64,000 nucleotides of DNA from Gammaproteobacteria bacterium (GTDB lineage Bacteria > Pseudomonadota > Gammaproteobacteria > JAUZRS01). The notes beneath the pieces are model-generated. The model saw nothing but the letters and a program-made list of their open reading frames with translations, was not told the origin of the DNA and did not search any database. The position numbers were made by a program, and so were the translations under genes. Below, piece by piece: positions 52,748 through 64,000 of this stretch; within the stretch, counting starts at the first letter, position 1; the number at the start of each line of letters is the position of its first letter. The stretch is taken from the NCBI GenBank assembly GCA_030949385.1, contig JAUZSP010000002.1, positions 200,534 through 264,533 on the forward strand. The letters run 5' to 3'.

Positions 52748-53806
52748 TTAGCAGATGCGGGGCAACTGCTCACCTACCAACATGTCCACAATGCGTTCAC
52801 CGCCAAAGCTTGTTTTGAGAATGACCCGTTCTGCAGGCGTGGCCAACACGTCTCCGATGATGGCGCTTTTTTGACCGGCGGGGTGTTGTTGCATGGTGGC
52901 CAATACCGCTTCTGCGTGTTTGGCGGGGACGATGGCAATCACTTTGCCCTCGTTGGCCAAGTAGAGCGGATCAAGGCCTAAAATTTCACACATGCCGCGT
53001 ACCTCTTGGCGAATCGGAATGGCGGTTTCATTTAGTCGGATTGCCACTTGGCTGCTGCTGGCAAATTCGTTTAGCACCGTGGCCACTCCGCCTCGGGTGG
53101 CGTCCCGCATACAGCGAATTTCAGGACAGGTCTGCAACATCGCTTCGATGAGGCCATTGAGGGGTTGGCAATCGGATTGAATGTTATTTTCCATCGCCAG
53201 TTCGCCCCGCGCATCGACAATGGCCGCGCCGTGATCACCCAGATAACCGTTGATGATGACCTTGTCGCCCACGTGTGCGTGGTGAGCAGCGAGATTGAGG
53301 TGAGGGGCAATCACGCCAACCCCTGCGGTGTTGATAAACAGCTTGTCCGCCGCGCCGCGTTGCACCACTTTGGTATCGCCGGTGACAATCGCCACTCCGG
53401 CAGCGTCCGCAGCCTGTTTCATTGATGCGACCACACGCCGTAGCGTTGCCACGGGCAGACCCTCTTCGATGATCATGCCGCAGCTCAAATAGAGCGGTTT
53501 GGCGCCGCCAACGGCCAAATCATTGACCGTGCCACAGACCGCCAGCTCACCGATGTCACCCCCAGGAAAAAACAGCGGGTCAACCACATAGGAGTCGGTG
53601 GTCATGGCCAGTTGAGAGCCGTATTGAGCGAGATCCGACAGCTCAAAACGGGCTTGATCTTCCAAGCCTGTGAGGTGCTCATTATCAAAACCACTGACAA
53701 AAACATCGTCGATCAGGTCACGCATGGCTTTGCCACCTGCGCCGTGGGCGAGGGTGATGGTGTCGGCTCTGAGTGTTCGTTTATTTCGAATTGGGGCGGG
53801 TTTCAC
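52748..53806 (-). CDS. hypE: [NiFe]-hydrogenase maturation protein HypE
   Basis: AIR-synthase-related fold. C-terminal ...GEQLPRIC (the PRIC thiocyanate-carrying cysteine motif). Confidence 0.9.
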   Translation of the reverse strand: MKPAPIRNKRTLRADTITLAHGAGGKAMRDLIDDVFVSGFDNEHLTGLEDQARFELSDLAQYGSQLAMTTDSYVVDPLFFPGGDIGELAVCGTVNDLAVGGAKPLYLSCGMIIEEGLPVATLRRVVASMKQAADAAGVAIVTGDTKVVQRGAADKLFINTAGVGVIAPHLNLAAHHAHVGDKVIINGYLGDHGAAIVDARGELAMENNIQSDCQPLNGLIEAMLQTCPEIRCMRDATRGGVATVLNEFASSSQVAIRLNETAIPIRQEVRGMCEILGLDPLYLANEGKVIAIVPAKHAEAVLATMQQHPAGQKSAIIGDVLATPAERVILKTSFGGERIVDMLVGEQLPRIC

Positions 53807-54963
53807 GCAGATTCTCCGTCATTAGAGGTTGATTTACGCTTGGCTAGCAGTTCTGGTAAGTTGCCGAAATTGTAGTAGGCGGCGCAGGCACCTTCAGAGG
53901 AGACCATTAATGCTCCCATTGGGGTTTCAGGGTTACACTGACTGCCAAACACTTTGCATTGCCAAGGGCGAATCGCTCCTTTGAGCACCTCACCGCATTG
54001 ACATGCTTTGGGATCTGCAATTTTTAGGTTGGGAATCTGAAATTTTTTCTCGGCATCAAAATCAACGTATTTCTCGCGCATCTTCACCCCAGAGTGATCA
54101 ATGGAACCGAGGCCGCGCCATTCAAAAAATTCTCGTAATTCAAACACCTCTTGAATGGCGTTGAGCGCCGGAGTATTGCCCTCTTTAGGCACCACGCGCG
54201 CGTATTGGTTTTCCACCGTGCAGCGTTTTTCCGCCAGTTGTTTGAGGGTCATCCAGATGGATTGCAAAATATCCAGAGGTTCAAATCCGGTGATCACCAA
54301 AGGGCGTTGATAGTGCTCAGCGACAAATTCAAAGGGGGTTTCTCCTACGACCATGCAGACATGGCCGGGAGCCAAAAAGGCATCGATGCGCATGTCAGGT
54401 GAGTCGAGAATGGCTTTGATGGTGGGTACGGTGGTGATGTGATTGCAAAACAGAGCAAAGTTTTTAATGCCGTCACGTTCGGCTTGTTGCACCGTCAATG
54501 CGGTGCTGGGCATGGTGGTCTCAAAGCCGAGGGCGAAAAAGATCACCTGTTTTTCAGGGTTTTTACGCGCCAAGTTGAGGGCATCCAGTGGCGAATAGAC
54601 CATGCGGATGTCGGCTCCCTCTGCTTTGGCTTGCAGCAGGCTCTTTTTGGAGCCAGGCACGCGCATGGCATCGCCAAAGGTGGTGAAGATCACATTGGGG
54701 CGTTCGGCTAAGGAGACGCAGTCATCCACTCGTCCCATGGGCAGCACGCAGACGGGGCAGCCGGGCCCATGTACCAGTTCAATCCAATCGGGCAGCATCT
54801 GTTCGATGCCGTAGCGAAAGATGGTGTGGGTGTGTCCACCGCAAAACTCCATTAACTGAAGAGGGCGATGTTTTGTGTCTGGTAGGGCGTTTTTTAGGCC
54901 GTTAATCTGTTTGATCAGTTGTTGCGCCTTGTCAGGATCGCGGAATTCGTCAACGTATTTCAT
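53803..54963 (-). CDS. hypD: [NiFe]-hydrogenase maturation protein HypD
   Basis: Conserved HypD Cys motifs (CGGHTH, GPGCPVC, FEPL..). 386 aa. Confidence 0.9.
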   Translation of the reverse strand: MKYVDEFRDPDKAQQLIKQINGLKNALPDTKHRPLQLMEFCGGHTHTIFRYGIEQMLPDWIELVHGPGCPVCVLPMGRVDDCVSLAERPNVIFTTFGDAMRVPGSKKSLLQAKAEGADIRMVYSPLDALNLARKNPEKQVIFFALGFETTMPSTALTVQQAERDGIKNFALFCNHITTVPTIKAILDSPDMRIDAFLAPGHVCMVVGETPFEFVAEHYQRPLVITGFEPLDILQSIWMTLKQLAEKRCTVENQYARVVPKEGNTPALNAIQEVFELREFFEWRGLGSIDHSGVKMREKYVDFDAEKKFQIPNLKIADPKACQCGEVLKGAIRPWQCKVFGSQCNPETPMGALMVSSEGACAAYYNFGNLPELLAKRKSTSNDGESA

Positions 54964-55646
54964 GTTTTATTTCCCAAGTTGCCACGCTGGTCGGCCAGCA
55001 GGGTGTGGGTCAGATCCCAGAGGATGTGATAACAGGTGAGGTGAATTTCTTGGACTCGATGAATGGAGTCACTTTCCACCACTAAGCAGTGATCCAGCAG
55101 GCCCGAGCGGCGCATTTCGCCACCATCCCCCCCCGTAAAACCAAGGGTTACCATGCCGATCTGTTTGGCTTTTTGGTAGGCTTTCAGCAGATTTTCAGAG
55201 TTGCCGCTGGTAGAAAACCCCACCAGACCGTCACCGGCTTGGCCGTAAGCTTCCAGTTGGCGAGAGAATATCTGTGCCATACCCACGTCGTTGCCCACCG
55301 CAGTCATCATGGCGTTATCGGCGGAGAGGTTGTGAGCGGGCAGTGCCGGTCGTCCTGCGGTGACTGGATGTTGAAACTCCACCGCAAAGTGAGCCGCATC
55401 ACAACTGGAGCCGCCATTGCCCATGCTGTAGAGGCGGTGCTGTTGTTGATAGAGCTTGGCCAAGCTGGTGGCAGCGGCCAGCAGCGCCGCGCCATTTTTG
55501 GCAAAAAAGCGTTTTTTCTCGGCACGACTGTGTTCCGCTTTTTGCTGGATGGAGTCCAGCAGCGCGGCGTTTTGTTGCACGGGTTCTTTTTTCTGACCGT
55601 GCAGAAAAGGGTAGAGGGCGTGCAACGATTCTGTGTTGTCGCTCAT
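54960..55646 (-). CDS. SIS-domain protein, paralog of phosphoheptose isomerase GmhA/DiaA, embedded in the hyp operon
   Basis: GNGGSSCDAAHFAVEF and GNDVGMAQIFSRQLEA...GFSTSGNSENL...TGGDGGEM blocks are colinear with E. coli GmhA. ATGA overlaps with hypC upstream and hypD downstream. Confidence 0.8.
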   Translation of the reverse strand: MSDNTESLHALYPFLHGQKKEPVQQNAALLDSIQQKAEHSRAEKKRFFAKNGAALLAAATSLAKLYQQQHRLYSMGNGGSSCDAAHFAVEFQHPVTAGRPALPAHNLSADNAMMTAVGNDVGMAQIFSRQLEAYGQAGDGLVGFSTSGNSENLLKAYQKAKQIGMVTLGFTGGDGGEMRRSGLLDHCLVVESDSIHRVQEIHLTCYHILWDLTHTLLADQRGNLGNKT

Positions 55647-55924
55647 GAGGGTTCGCTGTTTTTCATGGCGGCCAACTCCTCTTCTACTTCACCCAGCTCG
55701 GTGAGCAGCGCCAAGGTTTTTTCAGCCTCGTCAGCATCAATGCGGCTCATGGCGAACCCCACATGCACCAGCACCCAATCGCCGATGCACTGTTCTGGTG
55801 GGTGTTGTGGGTCAATAATGCAAGCAATGTTAATCGGGCGTTGAATGCCTGCCACATCAACTTTGGCCATGAGTGTGTCGTGGTCGAGAATCTCAATGAT
55901 CTGACCTGGAATGCCAAGGCACAT
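55643..55924 (-). CDS. hypC: [NiFe]-hydrogenase maturation chaperone HypC
   Basis: N-terminal MCLGIPGQI (essential Cys2). About 93 aa. Confidence 0.9.
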   Translation of the reverse strand: MCLGIPGQIIEILDHDTLMAKVDVAGIQRPINIACIIDPQHPPEQCIGDWVLVHVGFAMSRIDADEAEKTLALLTELGEVEEELAAMKNSEPS

Positions 55925-55931
55925 AAGGTGG

Positions 55932-58250
55932 TTACTCCCCTCTTTGTTGAGCTGCGCCAATCAGGGCTTGGCCAAAGGCCAAACCTCCGTCGTTGGCGGG
56001 CAGCATTTGATGGCTGAAGACCGTGAGGCCGTTCTGTTGCAAACCTTCTGTAACGGACTCCAGCAGTGTGCGGTTCTGAAACACGCCGCCGCTGAGGACA
56101 ACCTGTTTCAGTGTTTCTTTTTTCGCCAGTTTGGTGGCCATTTTGACTACGCTGTTCGCCAGCCCTTGATGAAAGCGGTAGGCCACCACGCCGACGGGAA
56201 CGCCTTGCTGAAGCTCTTTGAGCAGAGGCTGCCAGAGAGGGGTGGGATCCAATTGCCACAGCGCTTGATCTGTTTGGATAGCAAAAGGGTAGGCGTGGTT
56301 CCTTGGTTTTTCATCAGAGGTGATGGCGGCTTCCAATGCGCTGGCTGCTTGGCCTTCGTAACTGCATTGGGTTGGAGCCAGTCCCAGTGCGGCGGCCACG
56401 GCATCAAACAGGCGACCCATAGAGCTGGCGTTGGGGCTGTTGAGCTGCTGTTCGATCATGCGTTGAAGAGTGGCCAGTGGTTTTTTGTTCAGCTCTTGTA
56501 AGGCGCTTAGGTCGGCAAATTGTGTGTTTATTTCTGCCCAGCCGACGGCGTGCAGTTGCGCAAAAAGATTGCGCCACGGCTCTCGCATCGCCTGCGCGCC
56601 GCCCAGCAAGGGCATGGTTTTTAGGTGCGCCAGCCGTGTTGCCTGTCGGTAGTTGGCGCGTAGAAATTCCCCGCCCCAAAGCTGTCCATCAGCAGCGTAA
56701 CCCAGACCATCAAAGACAATCCCGAGCAGCGGCGGATGTTGGCGCGGCAAGTGATGTTCGCCCATGCAGGCGGCGATGTGGGCGTGGTGGTGCTGTACTT
56801 CGATCAGCGGCAGTTGCTGCTGTTCTGCCCAGTCACGACCCAATTTACTGCTGAGGTATTCGGGGTGTTGGTCAATGATCAGTTGGCTGGGTTGGTGGGC
56901 GAAGAGCTGTTGATAGAGTTGCAGGTGGTGTTGATAGTCGTCGTAGTGGTGCAGGGACTCTAGATCGCCAATGTGCTGTGAAAGGGTCGCGCTGCCACTC
57001 TGCAACAGGCAAAAAGTGTTTTTTAACTCGCCACCAAAGGCCAGCAGAGGGGGGCTGTGTTCAAAACCGGCGGGCAGTTTTAACTGCTCTGGGGCGTAAC
57101 CGCGCCCGCGCCGCAGCAGACGCACTTTGCCCGCCATAAAACGACCAACCGAATCGTCGATGCGGTTTTCTATATGGCGATTGTGGAGTAAAAATCCCTC
57201 TGCAAGGGGGGCGAGCTGCATTAATGCGGATTCGTTATCAATGCATTGAGGTTCACCGCTGCGGTTGGCTGAGGTGAGCACAATGGGCTGCGTCAGTTTC
57301 GCCATGAGCAGATGGTGCAGTGGTGAGTGGGGCAGCATAACGCCCCACAGGCGCTGCTGCGGTGCGAGGTTGTCGGGCAGGGCGTTGAGCTGTCGAGGAC
57401 GGAGAAGCAGAATCGGTGCGGCACTGCTCTGTAGGCTCTGTCGCTCTGCGGCGTTTAGGTGGCAGTACTGTTCGACTTGTTGGGTATTTTTAGCCATCAT
57501 CGCCAAGGGTTTGTCGGGGCGACCTTTGCGCTGGCGCAGGCGTTCGATGCTCTGCTTATTGTGAGCATCACAGGCGAGGTGAAAGCCGCCAATGCCTTTG
57601 ATGGCAATGATGTTGCCTGCGCGCAGTTCCGCTGCCGTGCGCAGCAGAGCGTGATGTTGCTCGGCTTGCGGTTCGCCGCTGCTGTTGAGGTAGCTCAGTT
57701 GGGGGCCGCAGTCGGGGCAGGCGATGGGTTGAGCGTGAAAACGGCGGTCGGCGGGGGTATCGTACTCCGCTTGGCAGCGTTGGCAGAGGGGGAAGCAGGC
57801 CATGCTGGTCTGTTGTCGATCATAAGGAATGGCTTTTATGATGGAGAAGCGTGGGCCGCAGTGGGTGCAGTTTAAGAAAGGATATTGAAACCGCGCTTCT
57901 TGAGGGTTGTTTAACTCTTGCAGACAGGCTTCACAGGTGGCGGCGTCGGCCACCACACCCGTTTGAATGGTGTGTTGTTGGCTTGGCAAAATGACAAAGC
58001 CACGGTCAATCTCGGTGTGCAGTGGACGGCTCTGTAGCTGGTCGATGCGCGCTAAGGGCGGGCACTGTTCTGTGAGTTGTTGCTGAAAAAGATCGAGGCG
58101 TTTGCGCTCGCCTTCAAGCTGGATTAAGACCCCTTGGCCGTCGTTGCAGACGCTGCCGTTGAGCTGTAGCGCGGTGGCCAAGCGCCAAACCGTGGGGCGA
58201 AAGCCCACCCCTTGTACCCGACCTGAGACCCGTATTTCGATGCTGATCAT
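55932..58250 (-). CDS. hypF: Carbamoyltransferase HypF
   Basis: N-terminal acylphosphatase domain (IRVSGRVQGVGFRP), two CxxC...CxxC zinc-finger pairs, YrdC-like and Kae1-like carbamoyltransferase domains. Confidence 0.9.
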   Translation of the reverse strand: MISIEIRVSGRVQGVGFRPTVWRLATALQLNGSVCNDGQGVLIQLEGERKRLDLFQQQLTEQCPPLARIDQLQSRPLHTEIDRGFVILPSQQHTIQTGVVADAATCEACLQELNNPQEARFQYPFLNCTHCGPRFSIIKAIPYDRQQTSMACFPLCQRCQAEYDTPADRRFHAQPIACPDCGPQLSYLNSSGEPQAEQHHALLRTAAELRAGNIIAIKGIGGFHLACDAHNKQSIERLRQRKGRPDKPLAMMAKNTQQVEQYCHLNAAERQSLQSSAAPILLLRPRQLNALPDNLAPQQRLWGVMLPHSPLHHLLMAKLTQPIVLTSANRSGEPQCIDNESALMQLAPLAEGFLLHNRHIENRIDDSVGRFMAGKVRLLRRGRGYAPEQLKLPAGFEHSPPLLAFGGELKNTFCLLQSGSATLSQHIGDLESLHHYDDYQHHLQLYQQLFAHQPSQLIIDQHPEYLSSKLGRDWAEQQQLPLIEVQHHHAHIAACMGEHHLPRQHPPLLGIVFDGLGYAADGQLWGGEFLRANYRQATRLAHLKTMPLLGGAQAMREPWRNLFAQLHAVGWAEINTQFADLSALQELNKKPLATLQRMIEQQLNSPNASSMGRLFDAVAAALGLAPTQCSYEGQAASALEAAITSDEKPRNHAYPFAIQTDQALWQLDPTPLWQPLLKELQQGVPVGVVAYRFHQGLANSVVKMATKLAKKETLKQVVLSGGVFQNRTLLESVTEGLQQNGLTVFSHQMLPANDGGLAFGQALIGAAQQRGE

Positions 58251-58251
58251 A

Positions 58252-59706
58252 TCAGTGAACCGTGCAGACCATGCAGGGATCAAAAGAGCGCACCACATGT
58301 TGCACCGCTACGGAGGTGCGATTGTCATCACTCAGTGGGGTGCCAACCAGGGCTTGTTCCAGTGCGCCTGGTTGTTCTTTTTCATCTCGGGGAGAGAAGT
58401 TCCAAGTGGTGGGGGCGATGATCTGATAGTTGATAATGTGACCGTGTTTGACTCGAATCCAATGGCCAAGACTGCCCCGAGCGGCTTCCACAAGGCCGTA
58501 GCCTTCTCCTTCGTCAGGCATCTTCGCTTGTTGAATAAAGGCTTCGTCAATGCGGATGTTTTTTGCCCAGCGTTCCATTTCTGGCAGCACCCGCGCCAAT
58601 TCCAGTAGGCGTGCCACCACGCGGTTTTGCACATTGCCACCGCTTTCTTTCACCAAGCCGTTGATCATCGGCTGGCGATCGAGTAGCTGACGAGCGAGGG
58701 CACCGACTTCCATGACGTGACCGTCGTAACGGGGAGCTTTGCACCAACTGTAGGCGTTGGCGGCATCGGCATCGGGTTCGGTGCTGCCTTGATAGGGGTG
58801 TTTTGGGCTGCGTTGGGCGTGCATCCAGCTGTGTTTTATATCTTCGCTGATGGCTTTGCTGTCAAAAGGCTGTGGTTTGCTGTGCCAAACACCGGCTTGA
58901 AACAGGTTGGTTTGTGGGGCTGTTTCATAGGCACCGTAGCTGAGAAAACGGTCGTTGGCGCGTCCCAGTTGCTCAAGGTCTAAGCGTTTGCAGAGCATTA
59001 AAAATTGGCCGAAGTCGCTCTGTGGGTGTTGCTCTGCCCATGCCCAAAGCGCGTCGCTGTTGTGCAATTCGGCGACCTGTTCCAGTGGTGCGCCAAACAG
59101 GGTGTTTTGCAAAAATTGGCGAAAACTGCCCAGCAGAGTGATTAGCTTAATGCGTTCACGAGCGTCGATGGCGCAGGTGGTGCCGCCCGGTTGCAGTGCC
59201 AGTGAGTGTGGCCAGCGTCCGGCCAACAGCCCTGTGAGCTGTAAAAATTGGGAGCGTGCGGGCAGCGCGTCTCGTGAGGCGCTGCCGCGCTGGGCGGCAA
59301 AGCGGCGGTGAATGGTTTCGAACCACGGCTCTTTTTGGTACACCTCACGGGCAAAATCGGGCATAAAAAAGAGATAAAAGTGGGAGAGGTGATCGGCCAT
59401 ATTTTCGCAGGCGAGAATCAAATTGGTGGCCAGTCGCCCGTTGTCGGTGTAACCAACGCCTTGCAGGTCGGCCAGCGCGCGTGAGGCAGCTACGGATTGG
59501 GAGACGGAGCAGATGCCGCAGATGCGTGGGGTGTAGACCAGTGCATCCTGTGGGTTTTTTCCCACGAGCATCTGTTCAAACCCTCGGTAGAGGGGGGAGT
59601 TGACCCAGGCACGGCTGACTCGTCCATCGTGCTCTTCAATTTGTACTTCGAGGTCGCCTTCAACGCGGTTAAAAGGGCCAAAGATGCGGCGGCTGGGCTG
59701 TTTCAT
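58252..59706 (-). CDS. hupV: H2-sensing regulatory [NiFe]-hydrogenase large subunit (HoxC/HupV type)
   Basis: N-terminal RICGICSVSQ (RxCGxC) and C-terminal DPCMVCTVH that ends the protein with no C-terminal extension. About 484 aa. Coupled to a signal-less small subunit and a kinase/regulator pair. Confidence 0.8.
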   Translation of the reverse strand: MKQPSRRIFGPFNRVEGDLEVQIEEHDGRVSRAWVNSPLYRGFEQMLVGKNPQDALVYTPRICGICSVSQSVAASRALADLQGVGYTDNGRLATNLILACENMADHLSHFYLFFMPDFAREVYQKEPWFETIHRRFAAQRGSASRDALPARSQFLQLTGLLAGRWPHSLALQPGGTTCAIDARERIKLITLLGSFRQFLQNTLFGAPLEQVAELHNSDALWAWAEQHPQSDFGQFLMLCKRLDLEQLGRANDRFLSYGAYETAPQTNLFQAGVWHSKPQPFDSKAISEDIKHSWMHAQRSPKHPYQGSTEPDADAANAYSWCKAPRYDGHVMEVGALARQLLDRQPMINGLVKESGGNVQNRVVARLLELARVLPEMERWAKNIRIDEAFIQQAKMPDEGEGYGLVEAARGSLGHWIRVKHGHIINYQIIAPTTWNFSPRDEKEQPGALEQALVGTPLSDDNRTSVAVQHVVRSFDPCMVCTVH

Positions 59707-60713
59707 TGGCTGGGTTCTTTTTTCAAAATGCGTGGCGGAGCAACGATGTGATCGGCCACCGCGTTCTCTTTTAGTCGAGCGGGAGTGGCGGCTTTGGAGA
59801 GTGAGGACAACGCCACAAACCACGCTTTGGGCATGTCGATGGGCAGCCCGATAGGAATACCGGCTATTTTTGGGGTTTGATGGAAGCTGTGGCCAGGTTC
59901 TTCGAACTCCGGCGCGGTGCAGTTGATGCAGGCAAAACCGCCTTTGATGCAGGAGCCTTCGCCGTTCCAAGGGCGACGGTTGCAGTCGGCGTGAGCTTGA
60001 GTGCCGAGGCAGCCTAAATTTTCCATCATGCAGCCTTGATCTGAGGGCTGTTCTGCACTGGCTTTAAATTCGTAAAACTCGTTGCGGTTGCAGCCGTGAT
60101 GCACCAAGTGATTGGTGTAACTGCGAGGGCGGTTCAGCTCGTCTAAGTGACGTTGATCCAGCTCGCCCATGGCCAGTTGGATCAACGTATCTGTGACCCA
60201 GCCCGGATGGGTGGGGCAACCAGCTACATTGATGACGGGCAGTCCAGCTGGGCTGAGCCACGTTTCACCGAGCAGGCCGCCCGGTTCGATGCCGTCGTAT
60301 TGCAGGCCGCAGGCATCGGTGGGGTTACCGCCGCCGCTGGTGATGCCGCCAAAGGCCGCACAACTGCCGATGGCCAAGGTGTAGTGGGCTTTTTCCACCA
60401 GCTCTTGCAGCCAGTGCATCATGGGACGACCGCTGCCCGCGAGCATGTGAAAACGGCCGCTGCCATTGGGGCCGCGCATCACCGAGCCTTCCAAGCAGAG
60501 GGCGTCCAGTGGCTGCTGATCGTTGAGGATGGCGCGCAGCAGGTCGAGAAAATCTTCACAACTGGCTTCGCTCAGAGAGGGGTGCCAGAGCAGCTCGATG
60601 TTGGCCAGTTCGAGGGTGCTGTAGAGATCGGGGTGTTCGGCGTTAAGCAGCGACATGCTACAGCCACCGCAGCCGCCGGACTGCAACCAGAGCAGGCGAA
60701 AGGGGCGGCTCAT
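59703..60713 (-). CDS. hupU: H2-sensing regulatory [NiFe]-hydrogenase small subunit (HoxB/HupU type), no Tat signal
   Basis: Begins MSRPFRLLWLQSGGCGGCSMS, so the proximal FeS cluster motif follows directly with no RRxFxK Tat leader. Further Cys clusters GSCAAFGG, GCPTHP, CxxxxC. Confidence 0.8.
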   Translation of the reverse strand: MSRPFRLLWLQSGGCGGCSMSLLNAEHPDLYSTLELANIELLWHPSLSEASCEDFLDLLRAILNDQQPLDALCLEGSVMRGPNGSGRFHMLAGSGRPMMHWLQELVEKAHYTLAIGSCAAFGGITSGGGNPTDACGLQYDGIEPGGLLGETWLSPAGLPVINVAGCPTHPGWVTDTLIQLAMGELDQRHLDELNRPRSYTNHLVHHGCNRNEFYEFKASAEQPSDQGCMMENLGCLGTQAHADCNRRPWNGEGSCIKGGFACINCTAPEFEEPGHSFHQTPKIAGIPIGLPIDMPKAWFVALSSLSKAATPARLKENAVADHIVAPPRILKKEPSQ

Positions 60714-62086
60714 GGAGCGACCTGCAGAGGCAGGGTGAGACGAAACAGCGCGCCTCCGTTGGGGTGGTTTTCGGCTTGCAGTTGGCCTTGGCACTGTTCT
60801 GTGGCGAGGTTGTAGCTGATGTAGAGACCTAAACCGGTGCCTTGCCCGACCTCTTTGGTGGTGAAAAAGGGGTCGAAGATGCGCAGCAAGTGCGTTTCAG
60901 ATATGCCGTCGCCGTGATCGTGAATTTCAATGACGGCGTGCTCTGCGTGCTGCGTGAGCTGTATGTCGATACGGGGAGTATCGGATTGCTGTACCGCATC
61001 GGTGGCGTTTTGCAGCAGATTGATTAGGACTTGATGTAAATAACCTTTATAGCCGTAGATTTCTACAGTTTCATCGGCATCAATGTTCAGTTGTGGGCTT
61101 TTACGTTGGGCTTTTATGACCCAATCCGCAGTGGTACGAATGACGGCGATGAGATTGAAATACTGGGCTTGTTGTTGATTGGGAGTGGAAAAACGGCGCA
61201 GTTCTTCGACGATCTCTCGTACCCGTTCAGCGCCTTCCAGCGAGCCGTCAATGAGGGAGCCGATGTCGCGCAACAGCGGGTCGATGCGCAGTCGCTCTCG
61301 CAGCTCTTGATGTTGTTGGCAGGTGTTGTTGGCATGAATGGCGGCCAGATATTCGCTGAGGCGCTGTTCGTAACGCCGCAAGGCGTGCATGTTGCCGAAG
61401 ACAAAGCTGATGGGGTTGTTGAGTTCGTGGGCGACCCCTGAAACCAACTGCCCTAAAGAGGCCATTTTTTCTGATTGTACCAGTTGATGCTGGGTGGTGC
61501 GCAGTTGTTTGTGGGTGTTTTTTAGTTCTTGATAGGCGTGCCGTAATTCACCTAATGGGCGACCGGTGATGACCAGACCGGAGAGACGACCTTTCTGTTC
61601 AAAGCGCGGTGTGCAGTTGATCGCAATGGGCACGCCGTGTTGATGTTGGGTGCGCAGTTCGACTTCGCAGTCGGTGACGGTGTGTTCGCGGATGTGCTCG
61701 GCAAAATCTTCCACCTGTTCGGCGTAGTCGGGCATAAACAGGCTGGCCAGTGGTTGACCTTTGAGCTCTTTGGCGCTTTGGCCGATGAGCGATTCGAGTG
61801 AGTGGTTGACCTGTTGTATTTTACCGCGAATGTCGGCCACGATGAGCACGTCACTCATGGAGGAGATGACGCTGCTGATAAAGCGTTGGGCGTTTTCCAG
61901 TGAGGTGTTTTTCTGCTCCAACTCGACTTGGTGATTTACCAGGTCGGCGTAGATCTGATCCATGCGTTGGATCACTTCGATCCATGCGCTTTCGTCGAGG
62001 CTGATGGCGGGGTTGGGGGTTACCTCTGCCTGTGCCATGAGTCCTTTCATATGGTTTTCTGCCTTGTTGTTGAGAACGATTCTCAA
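60710..62086 (-). CDS. hupT: PAS-domain sensor histidine kinase (HoxJ/HupT type)
   Basis: PAS region, H-box VSGVAHELNNPISFV, N/G boxes (LLQNATDA, DHGDGI, GTGLGLYIS). ATGA overlap with hupU. Confidence 0.8.
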   Translation of the reverse strand: MRIVLNNKAENHMKGLMAQAEVTPNPAISLDESAWIEVIQRMDQIYADLVNHQVELEQKNTSLENAQRFISSVISSMSDVLIVADIRGKIQQVNHSLESLIGQSAKELKGQPLASLFMPDYAEQVEDFAEHIREHTVTDCEVELRTQHQHGVPIAINCTPRFEQKGRLSGLVITGRPLGELRHAYQELKNTHKQLRTTQHQLVQSEKMASLGQLVSGVAHELNNPISFVFGNMHALRRYEQRLSEYLAAIHANNTCQQHQELRERLRIDPLLRDIGSLIDGSLEGAERVREIVEELRRFSTPNQQQAQYFNLIAVIRTTADWVIKAQRKSPQLNIDADETVEIYGYKGYLHQVLINLLQNATDAVQQSDTPRIDIQLTQHAEHAVIEIHDHGDGISETHLLRIFDPFFTTKEVGQGTGLGLYISYNLATEQCQGQLQAENHPNGGALFRLTLPLQVAP

Positions 62087-63573
62087 GGATGTTGGCCGTT
62101 GTTTTTGTTTTTGATTTTGTCGATGCCTTCGATCTGTTCGAGTCCGTAGCGTTCAAGTTTGTTGCGCAGACCGACGCGGGAGAGGCCGAGCTCTTCGGCG
62201 GTGTGGGTTTTGTTCCAATGGTGACGAATCAAAGACTCTTTGACGATGCGTGCTTCTAAGGCTTCCATGCGCTGTTTGAGGCTGCCTTCAACCTGTTGTA
62301 GAACGGAAAGGTCTTTTTCTTGTTCGTTGTTGCCGCCGTGCAGAATTTGGGTCGAAATCAGGTCGGCATCCAAGCGGTTCTCTGGGGCTAAGATCAACAT
62401 GCGTTTCAGCTCGTTTTGCAGCTCGCGTACGTTGCCAGGCCAGTGGTAGGTGGTAAGGCAGTCGATGGCCTCTTTGCTGATGCCGCTGATGGGTTTGCCC
62501 AGCTGCGCTTGCAGCTCTTCAAGAATGGAGTGAACCAAGATGGGGATGTCTTCTTTGCGTGCGCGTAGCGACGGAATGGGAATGATAAAGGTAGCCAGTC
62601 GGTAATAGAGGTCTTCACGAAAACGACCGGCTTGAACTTCGGCTTCTAGGTCACGGTTGGTGGCGGCAATGACACGTACATCGACGGTTCGGCGGCGATT
62701 GCTGCCGATAGGACGGATCTCACCCTCTTGCAGTACTCGCAGCAGTTTGACCTGAAAAGCGGGGGAGATTTCACCGATTTCATCGAGAAAAAGAGTGCCG
62801 CCGTCGGCCAGTTCAAACAGCCCTACACGGTCTTCGTAAGCGCCGGTAAAGGCGCCCCGTTTGTAGCCGAACAGCTCACTTTCCAGTAGTTCGTCGTTGA
62901 GTGCGCCGCAGTTTTCCGCCACAAAGGCGCGTTCTTGGCGCAGGCTGTTGTAGTGTAAGGAGCGAGCGCAAAGTTCTTTGCCAGTGCCTGATTCACCACT
63001 GAGAAGCACGTTGACATCAAAGGGGGCTACTCGGCGTACTAGGCGGCAGATTTCGTTCATGCAGCTGGTGTCGCTGCGAATAATGCCTTGATCACCCTTG
63101 AATTTCTGTTGCAATTGTTGGCGTTTGGCGGCGATGTCATCGGCTAGGATTTTGGGGTGCAATTTGAGTTCGCTGGAGAGCACTGAGTTTTGTTGTTGTA
63201 GGTAATACAGCTCGACCGCGTTACGAATTTTCAACAGTAGTTTTTCTGGATGCCAAGGTTTGTTGATGTACTGATATATGGCCGCTTGGTTAATGGCTTC
63301 AATCAGGTCGTTTGAGTCGGTGTAACCGGAGATGATAATGCGGATCACATCGGGCCACTGCTTACGTACTTTACTAAGGCATTCTAACCCCGACATGCCT
63401 GGCATACGTTGGTCGCATAAAATCACCTGCACCCATTCTCGCTCCAGCAAGGCGTGAGCTTCACTGGCGTTGAGGGCGGTCAGTACTTCGAACTCCTCTT
63501 CCAGAGTACGCCGCAGAGTCTCTAGAGAGCGAAGCTCATCATCAACCACCAAAATGGTGGGCAGAGTGCTCAT
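62083..63573 (-). CDS. hupR: Sigma54-dependent (NtrC-family) response regulator (HoxA/HupR type)
   Basis: Receiver domain (ILVVDDE...DQRMPGMSG), AAA+ sigma54-interaction domain ([14 protein letters not shown]), C-terminal HTH. ATGA overlaps on both sides. Confidence 0.8.
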
Positions 63574-64000
63574 AAGGCGTTCTTGGCCTCGGCTGACGTG
63601 ATGTCGTGTTGCAGTGGATGACCGATGAGACGCATGGCACGGTTGGCGCGTAACCAGTCGTACCATTGCGACATGCCTTCACCGCTGCGCGCAGAAAGTT
63701 GCAGTACCTGTAGGCTGGGATTGACCCGTCGTGCGTATTCGATGCACTTTTCCATGTCAAAATCGAGGTAGGGCAGCAGGTCGATTTTATTGATCAGCAT
63801 CAGGTCGGCGGCGTGGAACATGTCGGGGTATTTGATCGGTTTGTCTTCGCCTTCGGTGACGGAGAGAATGGCGACTTTATGCGCTTCTCCTAGATCAAAG
63901 GCCGCTGGACAGACCAAATTTCCGACGTTTTCGATAAACAGCAGTGCGCCTGCCTCGGGGGCGAGGCTCTGTAGTGCGTGGCCAACTTGATGGGCGTCCA
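63570..64000 (-). CDS. hypB: Hydrogenase nickel-incorporation GTPase HypB (C-terminal part; N-terminus beyond the window)
   Basis: [22 protein letters not shown] and C-terminal LSARSGEGM blocks of HypB/UreG-type GTPases. Stop TGA overlaps the hupR ATG. Confidence 0.85.

Follow-up and report, generated by a model that had tools for sequence, protein, structure and literature searches.

The Hyp pathway of hydrogenase maturation, in which the HypC-HypD-HypE module builds the Fe(CN)2CO half of the [NiFe] cofactor, is deemed well mapped, with HypA-F, HypX, HupK and a few other proteins. Its gaps are the source of the carbon monoxide (CO) ligand outside the HypX route and the handling of the O2-labile Fe intermediate in air. 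HypX, which consists of formyltransferase and crotonase domains, converts N10-formyl-tetrahydrofolate to formyl-CoA and then to CO. It is the aerobic maker of the CO ligand, and the 2025 review of the Hyp machinery that describes it mentions no SIS-domain protein (PMC12134894), in agreement with the statement of an earlier note on the DNA discussed here that no such protein is part of the current Hyp model. This DNA, a stretch of 64,000 nucleotides (hereafter the window) from contig JAUZSP010000002.1 of a Gammaproteobacteria bacterium, contains between hypC and hypD a gene for a SIS-domain protein related to phosphoheptose isomerase (GmhA). We propose, with a probability of about 0.55 for the reading as a whole, that its product is a dedicated accessory of the HypC-HypD-HypE module, which docks on this module and processes a phosphosugar.

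Genes of this kind have been annotated in hydrogenase clusters before. MSMEG_2706 in the hydrogenase clusters of M. smegmatis was designated gmhA or phosphoheptose isomerase (PMC5445863), the best matches of the M. indicus pranii gmhA were in R. eutropha (PMC3505973), the hup operon of A. ferrooxidans was described with GmhA among its "maturation proteins" (PMC7735108), and acidobacterial group 1h loci were found to include gmhA (PMC5900883). In addition, a Frankia study described gmhA as a frequent member of group 1h and 2a operons (PMC11879354), a neighborhood survey of 2025 listed a SIS-domain cluster (PMC12727194), and a network paper of 2011 reported a GmhA-HypD-HypE link (PMC3231954). 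The association of gmhA with hydrogenase operons is thus already on record, and the earlier note, which had suggested that the gene may be a novel maturation accessory, overstated this point. As far as we searched, the new observations are fusions with HypC and operon-level exclusivity with HypX.

The gene is a minus-strand open reading frame (ORF) that runs from ATG to TGA and encodes a SIS/GmhA-like protein (Table 1). The sequence ATGA at 55643-55646 provides both the hypC stop and the SIS start, and ATGA at 54960-54963 provides the SIS stop and the hypD start, as the earlier note had described for a full-length SIS gene with 4-bp overlaps on both sides. GTGA at 53803-53806 is likewise common to hypD and hypE, and 4-bp overlaps form the majority of junctions in the hypB-to-hypE operon, a single dense minus-strand unit extending from ~64000 to 52748 with the order hypB(partial)-hoxA/hupR-hoxJ/hupT-hupU-hupV-hypF-hypC-SIS-hypD-hypE. 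The SIS gene is co-translated with hypC and hypD. The hypC, hypD, hypE and hypF genes that flank it are authentic hyp genes: HypC matches HupF_HypC (8.9e-27), HypD matches both HypD (2.1e-157) and TIGR00075 (510 bits), and HypE and HypF have the expected domain sets. The G+C content at third codon positions is 0.62 in the SIS gene, within the range of its neighbors (0.57-0.63). No second gmhA-like gene was detected by tblastn in the 64-kb window, and no heptose or lipopolysaccharide (LPS) core genes (gmhB, hldE, waaC/F) adjoin the SIS gene, whose neighbors are hyp and hup genes.

Among 5.8 billion proteins searched, the SIS protein had thousands of homologs, hundreds of them with 63-79% identity and mostly from gammaproteobacterial sulfur-oxidizer lineages; an identical copy (100%, P0001) occurs in an NCBI gammaproteobacterial metagenome-assembled genome (MAG). 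Gene context was surveyed in 85 loci, i.e., at least 80 selected by similarity alone, with one genome per GTDB species, and 5 earlier loci. They were annotated by phmmer with the window's own Hyp proteins, and ORFs in these foreign loci were called mechanically. All counts that follow in this paragraph are among the matches listed. The SIS gene lay beside hyp genes (hypC/D/E or hypF) in 85/85 loci. The full hypC-SIS-hypD order was found in 66 of the 85, and 9 more were consistent with it and cut by a contig end; the order hypC-hypD-SIS-hypE was observed in 7/85 (Planctomycetota, Ignavibacteriales, some Acidobacteriota and a deltaproteobacterium), and tandem SIS genes adjoining hypF or hypC in 3/85, all from Actinomycetota. 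A 4-bp start/stop overlap was present at 53 of 72 SIS/hypD junctions. These loci belong to Proteobacteria, Acidobacteriota, Nitrospirota, Cyanobacteria, Planctomycetota and Actinomycetota, and include Gamma-, Beta- and Alphaproteobacteria (Paraburkholderia, Mesorhizobium, Hyphomicrobium, Methylocystis and Methylocapsa among the taxa), Acidithiobacillus ferrianus, Pyrinomonadaceae, Nitrospiraceae, the cyanobacterium Moorena and Myxococcales. The family is distinct and GmhA-derived and always adjoins hypC/D/E. The check proposed in the earlier note, a search for SIS neighbors in other hyp clusters, therefore bears out its view of a dedicated hyp-linked GmhA paralog, as do the HypC fusions and the C. 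necator plasmid ortholog described below.

In C. necator H16, an ortholog with 62.6% identity (WP_011153996.1) is encoded on plasmid pHG1 between hypC2 (PHG073) and hypD2 (PHG075) of the hyd4 cluster, which specifies the group 1h actinobacterial hydrogenase (AH); by locus-tag order, it is PHG074. The ortholog on O. carboxidovorans pHCG3 (59% identity) is part of hypF-hypC-SIS-hypD-hypE beside a 1d membrane-bound hydrogenase (MBH) and a HoxBC sensor, and in Thiosocius teredinicola hypC-SIS-hypD-hypE is located downstream of hupGHIJK-type genes, hypAB, hupR/T and hupUV. The same arrangement was seen in a Planctomycetia-labelled MAG and in a group-2a-like cluster with NifU-Rieske, NHL and TPR genes. 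The clusters in which the family occurs belong to hydrogenases of O2-tolerant or aerobic types (1d with an H2 sensor, 1h and 2a). The earlier note had connected the gene with the origin of CO under anaerobic conditions; this connection does not fit, because the family is found in such clusters and is complementary to the aerobic HypX.

The SIS ORF matches Pfam SIS_2 (1.3e-18) and NCBIfam gmhA TIGR00441 (2.5e-45). Alignment to 2xbl/5ltz showed that it is colinear with residues 43-193 of B. pseudomallei GmhA, which agrees with the colinearity given in the earlier note and refines it, in that the N-terminus is ~35-40 residues longer than that of GmhA. The AlphaFold model has a pLDDT of 88.1, and its Foldseek comparison with GmhA crystal structures gave TM scores of 0.84-0.92 at 38% identity; all top 37 PDB matches were GmhA or DiaA (TMt 0.78-0.92), so that the SIS/GmhA fold is present. 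Entries of the GmhA mutants H64Q, Q175E and D61A were among these structures. However, the protein scored below all curated GmhA cut-offs (154.3 bits against 209.45 for TIGR00441, 134.7 against 276 for NF010546, 125.3 against 265 for NF001628 and 93.3 against 320 for NF010547), and its orthologs are named merely "SIS domain-containing protein" by the Prokaryotic Genome Annotation Pipeline (PGAP). With the DiaA model NF008138 it scored 98.5 bits (cut-off 352), and the domain scan detected only SIS_2 and SIS, with no HypX domains (formyltransferase and enoyl-CoA hydratase/crotonase).

The GmhA site has been described as E-Q-H, with Glu and His supplied by one subunit and Gln by its neighbor (PMC4697000); PMC7705670 provided no assignment of the phosphate loop to a chain. 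In our alignment, H86 and E90 correspond to the Zn-binding and catalytic residues His64 and Glu68 of B. pseudomallei GmhA, and Q199 and H207 to its Gln175 and His183. The metal/catalytic positions and the phosphate loop of GmhA are 97-100% conserved in 187 single-domain relatives. Given this conservation, the class to which the window protein belongs has the appearance of a metal-dependent enzyme fully equipped to bind a phosphosugar, and not that of a degenerate module. We lean slightly toward a protein that is catalytically active on a phosphosugar.

Three motifs, LYPF, E-F-x-H-P and S-x-H-R-[VI]-Q-E, are all present in the window protein and absent from 19 canonical GmhA representatives. 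The LYPF motif is invariant in our alignment of the family (A1), and occurs in ~96% of 187 class-A relatives and in 88% of the C-domains of double-SIS proteins; L11, Y12, P13, S194, H196, R197 and E200 are all invariant in A1. H93 (98% conserved) is family-specific and is replaced by Gly in canonical GmhA. S194 and H196 are also family-specific, H196 being 97% conserved and replaced by Pro/Ala in canonical GmhA. In the neighbor-joining tree of the SIS-domain family, 21 canonical GmhA representatives grouped apart from the hyp-type groups; clean monophyly is not claimed, as the motif-based labels were too crude. A subclass found between hypD and hypE (L076-L078, L080, L081, L083 and L085) does not have the LYPF extension; in one representative that was read (P0144), the E-F-x-H-P and H-R-I-Q-E motifs were kept.

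When 1.84 billion cluster representatives were searched exhaustively with HMMER, many of the best relatives of the SIS protein proved to be 390-480 residues long, with two SIS domains. In some, a HypC-like domain is located between both SIS domains, and 5 scanned proteins exceeded the Pfam cut-off for HupF_HypC. Such SIS-HypC-SIS fusions form >100 distinct clusters, e.g., in Solirubrobacterales (P0125, P0130, P0150, P0163, P0210, P0271-P0389). In two sampled loci, the hypC-hypD slot was held by a three-domain fusion (L004, 10001-11374) and by a two-domain SIS protein (L005), and a free-standing hypC was also present at L004, where the slot upstream of hypD holds the SIS-HypC-SIS fusion. The internal HypC-like domain starts with C-[ILV]-T-C in place of the N-terminal Met-Cys; a Cys of this domain is in register with Cys2 of HypC (C-x-T-C in 107/114), and the His of V-H-x-G is kept. 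These "Rosetta-stone" fusions argue for a physical partnership with HypC/HypD. SIS-SIS-glutaredoxin fusions were also found (P0174, P0180), and "glutaredoxin 3" genes were drawn beside gmhA in acidobacterial group 1h loci (PMC5900883); together, they are a hint of thiol or redox maintenance in aerobic maturation. In the two-domain proteins, the N-domain keeps H86, E90 and H93 and has lost GNGGS and the phosphate loop, and the C-domain keeps LYPF, GNGGS, STSG, R-x-Q-E and H207 and has Asp at positions 86 and 90.

Two further observations concern these architectures. On the M. intracellulare plasmid NZ_CP012886.2 (L177:13294-14657), the genes of a group-2a (Huc-like) cluster are arranged as hypF-hypC, a 236-residue protein annotated as HypC family, a 218-residue SIS protein, hypE-hypC-hypD; judging from length and annotation, the 236-residue protein is probably a SIS N-domain plus HypC. 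Genes for RuBisCO, cbbX, transketolase and phosphoribulokinase directly follow this hyp cluster. In the annotation of two close homologs, P0072 (397 residues) and P0117 (365 residues), the SIS domain is fused to additional N-terminal DUF559 and MTES_1575 (PF04480/PF18741) domains, which may reflect a gene-calling artefact or an inserted Vsr-like endonuclease module.

That the SIS protein is a maturation accessory of some kind is, in our judgment, quite probable. In the mechanism we favor, a GmhA-like oligomer of the SIS protein would dock on HypC/HypD, either through the N-terminal LYPF segment or, in other phyla, through the fused HypC-like domain. It would bind or isomerize a ketose or aldose phosphate beside the HypC/HypD-bound iron and would support cofactor assembly for O2-tolerant hydrogenases in air. 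Docking through LYPF is conjectural, and the low AlphaFold2 confidence of this segment would be as expected if it became ordered only on a partner. A circumstantial point in favor of a maturation role comes from a heterologous expression study in which the C. necator genes hypF3C2D2E2A3B3 were termed "a complete set", with the gene between PHG073 and PHG075 skipped; this set (M2), which had no SIS gene, reached only ~8% of the cognate set's activity (PMC3702609).

Our most specific guess is that the SIS protein might serve a HypX-independent route that supplies or handles the carbonyl ligand or its precursor, because HypX makes CO aerobically and never shares a hyp operon with the SIS gene. 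No HypX homolog was detected in the window or, within ~10 kb, in the SIS loci (0/87, phmmer with C. necator HypX as query), and 0/80 metagenomic HypX loci contained a SIS-family ORF, even at a profile E value of ≤1e-3, although hypD was found in 62/80 of them; all these counts are among the matches listed. Among 1h clusters, SIS is present in the C. necator AH cluster and HypX in those of Kitasatospora and Streptantibioticus. Among 1d clusters, SIS is present in the window, Thiosocius and O. carboxidovorans, and HypX in C. necator MBH and Bradyrhizobium. HypX was also found in a Sulfurimonas cluster of a cytochrome-b-linked membrane-bound hydrogenase whose group is unassigned. Repeated replacement of HypX by SIS was considered and rejected, as the neighbor-joining tree of HypD needs one switch, or two with Kitasatospora, and for the same reason we regard the exclusivity as suggestive, and no longer as strong, evidence of analogous roles. 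An involvement of the SIS protein in CO supply is accordingly graded low, as unlikely. Still less likely is the boldest version, in which it would form the catalytic center of a second aerobic pathway to the iron-bound carbonyl, one that does not depend on HypX: the docked protein would turn a ketose phosphate into an open-chain aldose phosphate, and decarbonylation of the aldose's C1 aldehyde, or of a C1 fragment arising from it, on the scaffold iron would yield Fe-CO. If true, this would explain the source of the CO ligand in aerobic H2 oxidizers that have SIS and no HypX in their hyp operons. In addition, plasmids of Nocardia, Acaryochloris and Mycetohabitans (L091, L092 and L093) carry lone genes for HypX-like proteins that share 36-44% identity with HypX of C. 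necator; neither hydrogenase nor hyp genes occur within 15 kb of them, and certain HypX homologs may therefore serve functions outside hydrogenase.

Several points weigh against the proposal of a docked, phosphosugar-processing accessory. With regard to HypX, the sample was narrow, as it comprised only relatives with 50-65% identity. HypX and SIS coexist on pHG1 of C. necator and on Bradyrhizobium plasmids, where 56-87 kb lie between their respective clusters; because HypX-derived CO is diffusible, the mere absence of HypX from an operon is no reason for a need of SIS. Moreover, 61 proteobacterial HypX-type sequences formed a single clade in the HypD tree, and the exclusivity could largely reflect two operon lineages and not repeated functional replacement. 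With regard to the protein itself, docking through LYPF is conjectural for a segment of such low confidence, and the two-domain proteins divide the phosphate loop and the metal residues over their domains, which a composite site or a loss of isomerase chemistry would fit equally well. The Hyp proteins of hyd4 are partly functional without SIS (PMC3702609), and some 1h/2a clusters do not have the gene, as in Frankia (PMC11879354), so that it is not universally required. Finally, we found no functional study (knockout or biochemistry) of the family in the searchable literature, where the existing mentions are annotations, and "PHG074" is mentioned in no searchable paper.

An unlikely but credible alternative is that the protein is non-catalytic and serves as a DiaA-like assembly hub, i.e., that a tetramer of the GmhA fold holds several copies of HypC/HypD (or HypE). 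It would stabilize or shield the O2-labile Fe intermediate in the way of HupK/HoxV, and its "active site" would bind a ligand or metal in a structural capacity only. DiaA provides a precedent, being a GmhA fold turned into a protein-oligomerization hub (PMC4697000). The fusions with the HypC-like domain and glutaredoxin suggest scaffolding or thiol maintenance, the LYPF segment resembles a docking peptide, and the full catalytic set is present in neither domain of double-SIS proteins. However, the catalytic Glu and the last His are no longer present in DiaA, whereas the catalytic, metal and phosphate residues of GmhA are nearly invariant in the window's class. These residues and the score far below the DiaA cut-off led us to reject the identity of the protein with DiaA, and they also weaken the alternative raised in the earlier note, that of a DiaA-like binding module only.

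It is improbable that the protein is an iron chaperone whose His/Glu/Gln/His site, with His93 and His196, carries Fe(II) to HypC/HypD under oxic conditions. GmhA binds Zn at the same residues (mutant PDB entries H64Q, Q175E and D61A; PMC4697000), the two family-specific His are nearby in sequence, the source of the cofactor's iron is debated (PMC10847431), and the Cys/His ligands are kept in the fused HypC-like domain. Nevertheless, the strictly conserved STSGNS phosphate loop would have no role in a pure metal chaperone. A shade less probable again is a metabolic sensor that binds sedoheptulose-7-phosphate, or another intermediate of the Calvin-Benson-Bassham or pentose-phosphate pathway, and ties maturation to carbon-fixation status. 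The conserved ligand-binding residues are compatible with sensing, the hosts are largely chemolithoautotrophs and the M. intracellulare cluster adjoins RuBisCO, transketolase and phosphoribulokinase genes, but the hypC-hypD coupling and the HypC fusions point to a stoichiometric scaffold partner, and the operon already has an H2 sensor, a kinase and a regulator. Finally, a housekeeping GmhA for LPS heptose located here by chance, for which one could cite that the best-scoring named families are GmhA models, that the catalytic residues are intact and that the 64-kb window has no other gmhA, is essentially excluded, because the protein falls below every curated GmhA cut-off, its orthologs carry the generic PGAP name, its relatives are hyp-linked in 85/85 cases among the matches listed, including Actinomycetota and Cyanobacteria, and are fused to HypC in places, no heptose-pathway genes adjoin, and orthologs on pHG1 and pHCG3 lie inside hydrogenase clusters, pHG1-free C. 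necator strains being viable.

The remaining genes of the window and of the surveyed loci deserve a brief description. Between hypB and hypF, the window contains a complete H2-sensing module (58252-63573) with hupU/hupV-like genes, a PAS kinase and a sigma-54 regulator, with 4-bp overlaps throughout. Its regulatory-hydrogenase large subunit gene has the same gene order as in Thiosocius teredinicola and O. carboxidovorans. In a domain scan, recurrent neighbor families of the SIS loci were HycI protease, DsbD_2, NicO, DUF5947, YcaO, multicopper oxidase, SDR and one 523-residue family without a Pfam match; no CO-related or HypX-like enzyme was among them. The latter family (U8; L051:5061-6632 and 9 other loci; ~523 residues) recurs upstream of hypF in SIS-type clusters and may be the ~470-residue "hypothetical protein" of the C. 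necator and Kitasatospora 1h clusters. Just upstream of hypF, several Pyrinomonadaceae hydrogenase loci (e.g., L029:3036-7146, from a MAG) encode a multicopper oxidase and a homolog of YcaO cyclodehydratase. A DsbD_2/TauE-SafE-like membrane protein (U5; L012:12883-13596 and 12 other loci; L087:16014-16712) recurs in SIS-type clusters, where it directly follows hypE or hypB, and it may transport nickel or a thiol reductant.

Table 1. Position of the SIS gene, its motifs and the surrounding operon in the window
Feature	Position	Strand	Description and basis
Hyp-associated SIS/GmhA-like gene	54960..55646	minus	228 aa; Pfam/NCBIfam matches, GmhA alignment, AlphaFold model
L11-Y12-P13-F14 motif, N-terminal	55605..55616	minus	hyp-linked family only; absent from canonical GmhA
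G76-N-G-G-S80 SIS signature loop	55407..55421	minus	alignment
H86-F-A-V-E90-F-Q-H93-P94	55365..55391	minus	alignment to 2xbl/5ltz; 98% conserved
S145-T-S-G-N-S150 phosphate-binding loop	55197..55214	minus	98% conserved; matches GmhA STSGKS
S194-I-H196-R-V-Q199-E-I-H-L-T-C-Y-H207	55026..55067	minus	alignment
hypE	52748..53806	minus	352 aa; GTGA overlap with hypD
hypD	53803..54963	minus	386 aa; start overlaps SIS stop (ATGA)
hypC	55643..55924	minus	93 aa, MCLGIPG...; stop overlaps SIS start (ATGA)
hypF	55932..58250	minus	772 aa; 7 nt upstream of hypC
H2-sensing regulatory hydrogenase large subunit (HupV/HoxC-like)	58252..59706	minus	NiFeSe_Hases 4.5e-82
Regulatory hydrogenase small subunit (HupU/HoxB-like)	59703..60713	minus	
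PAS histidine kinase (HoxJ/HupT-like)	60710..62086	minus	translation; equivalent position in L001/L002 has PAS/HisKA/HATPase domains
Sigma-54 response regulator (HoxA/HupR-like)	62083..63573	minus	translation; comparison with related loci
hypB, 3' part	63570..64000	minus	truncated by window end; translation; position is that of hypB in L001

Genes of the SIS family lie in the middle of the Fe(CN)2CO module of many aerobic H2 oxidizers, including atmospheric-H2 scavengers, C. necator and M. smegmatis, and the family is absent from current maturation models. Should the protein prove necessary, the "minimal" Hyp set with which O2-tolerant hydrogenases are produced in heterologous hosts would lack a component, and if it is a functional alternative to HypX, it would offer a direct experimental handle on the biosynthesis of the CO ligand.

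Among known systems, the window protein shares with GmhA (E. coli 2I2W; B. pseudomallei 2X3Y/2XBL) the fold, GNGGS, the His/Glu/Gln/His positions and the STSGxS loop, but differs in the ~35-40-residue N-terminal extension with LYPF, in His93 for Gly and His196 for Pro/Ala, and in its hyp neighbors. DiaA and HobA, hubs that bind DnaA, also have the GmhA fold (Foldseek matches 2YVA and 4U6N) and are a precedent for a protein-binding oligomer; the SIS protein, unlike DiaA, keeps the catalytic Glu and the last His. HupK/HoxV and HupF/HoxL resemble it as lineage-restricted extra HypC partners in O2-tolerant maturation (PMC12134894), and HupK co-occurs with SIS in Thiosocius-type clusters; however, their origin is the hydrogenase large subunit or HypC and not a sugar-phosphate enzyme. 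SIS resembles HypX in that it supplements the hypCDE operons of O2-tolerant hydrogenases, and the two are complementary at the operon level; any functional analogy would be putative, and they have no kinship in sequence or fold, and HypX is located after hypE whereas SIS is located between hypC and hypD. The closest counterparts are WP_011153996.1, MSMEG_2706, the A. ferrooxidans hup GmhA and the SIS protein of O. carboxidovorans pHCG3, which belong to the same family and occupy the same slot, with the hypF-hypC-SIS-hypD-hypE order shared by the C. necator and O. carboxidovorans genes. In contrast to the actinobacterial versions, which are split or fused two-domain proteins, the window protein has a single domain. 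Its gene is part of a gammaproteobacterial cluster coupled to hupUV-hoxJA H2-sensor genes, which, by analogy with Thiosocius, may be tied to a 1d-type hupGHIJK cluster, and it extends the family beyond the 1h/2a contexts named in the literature.

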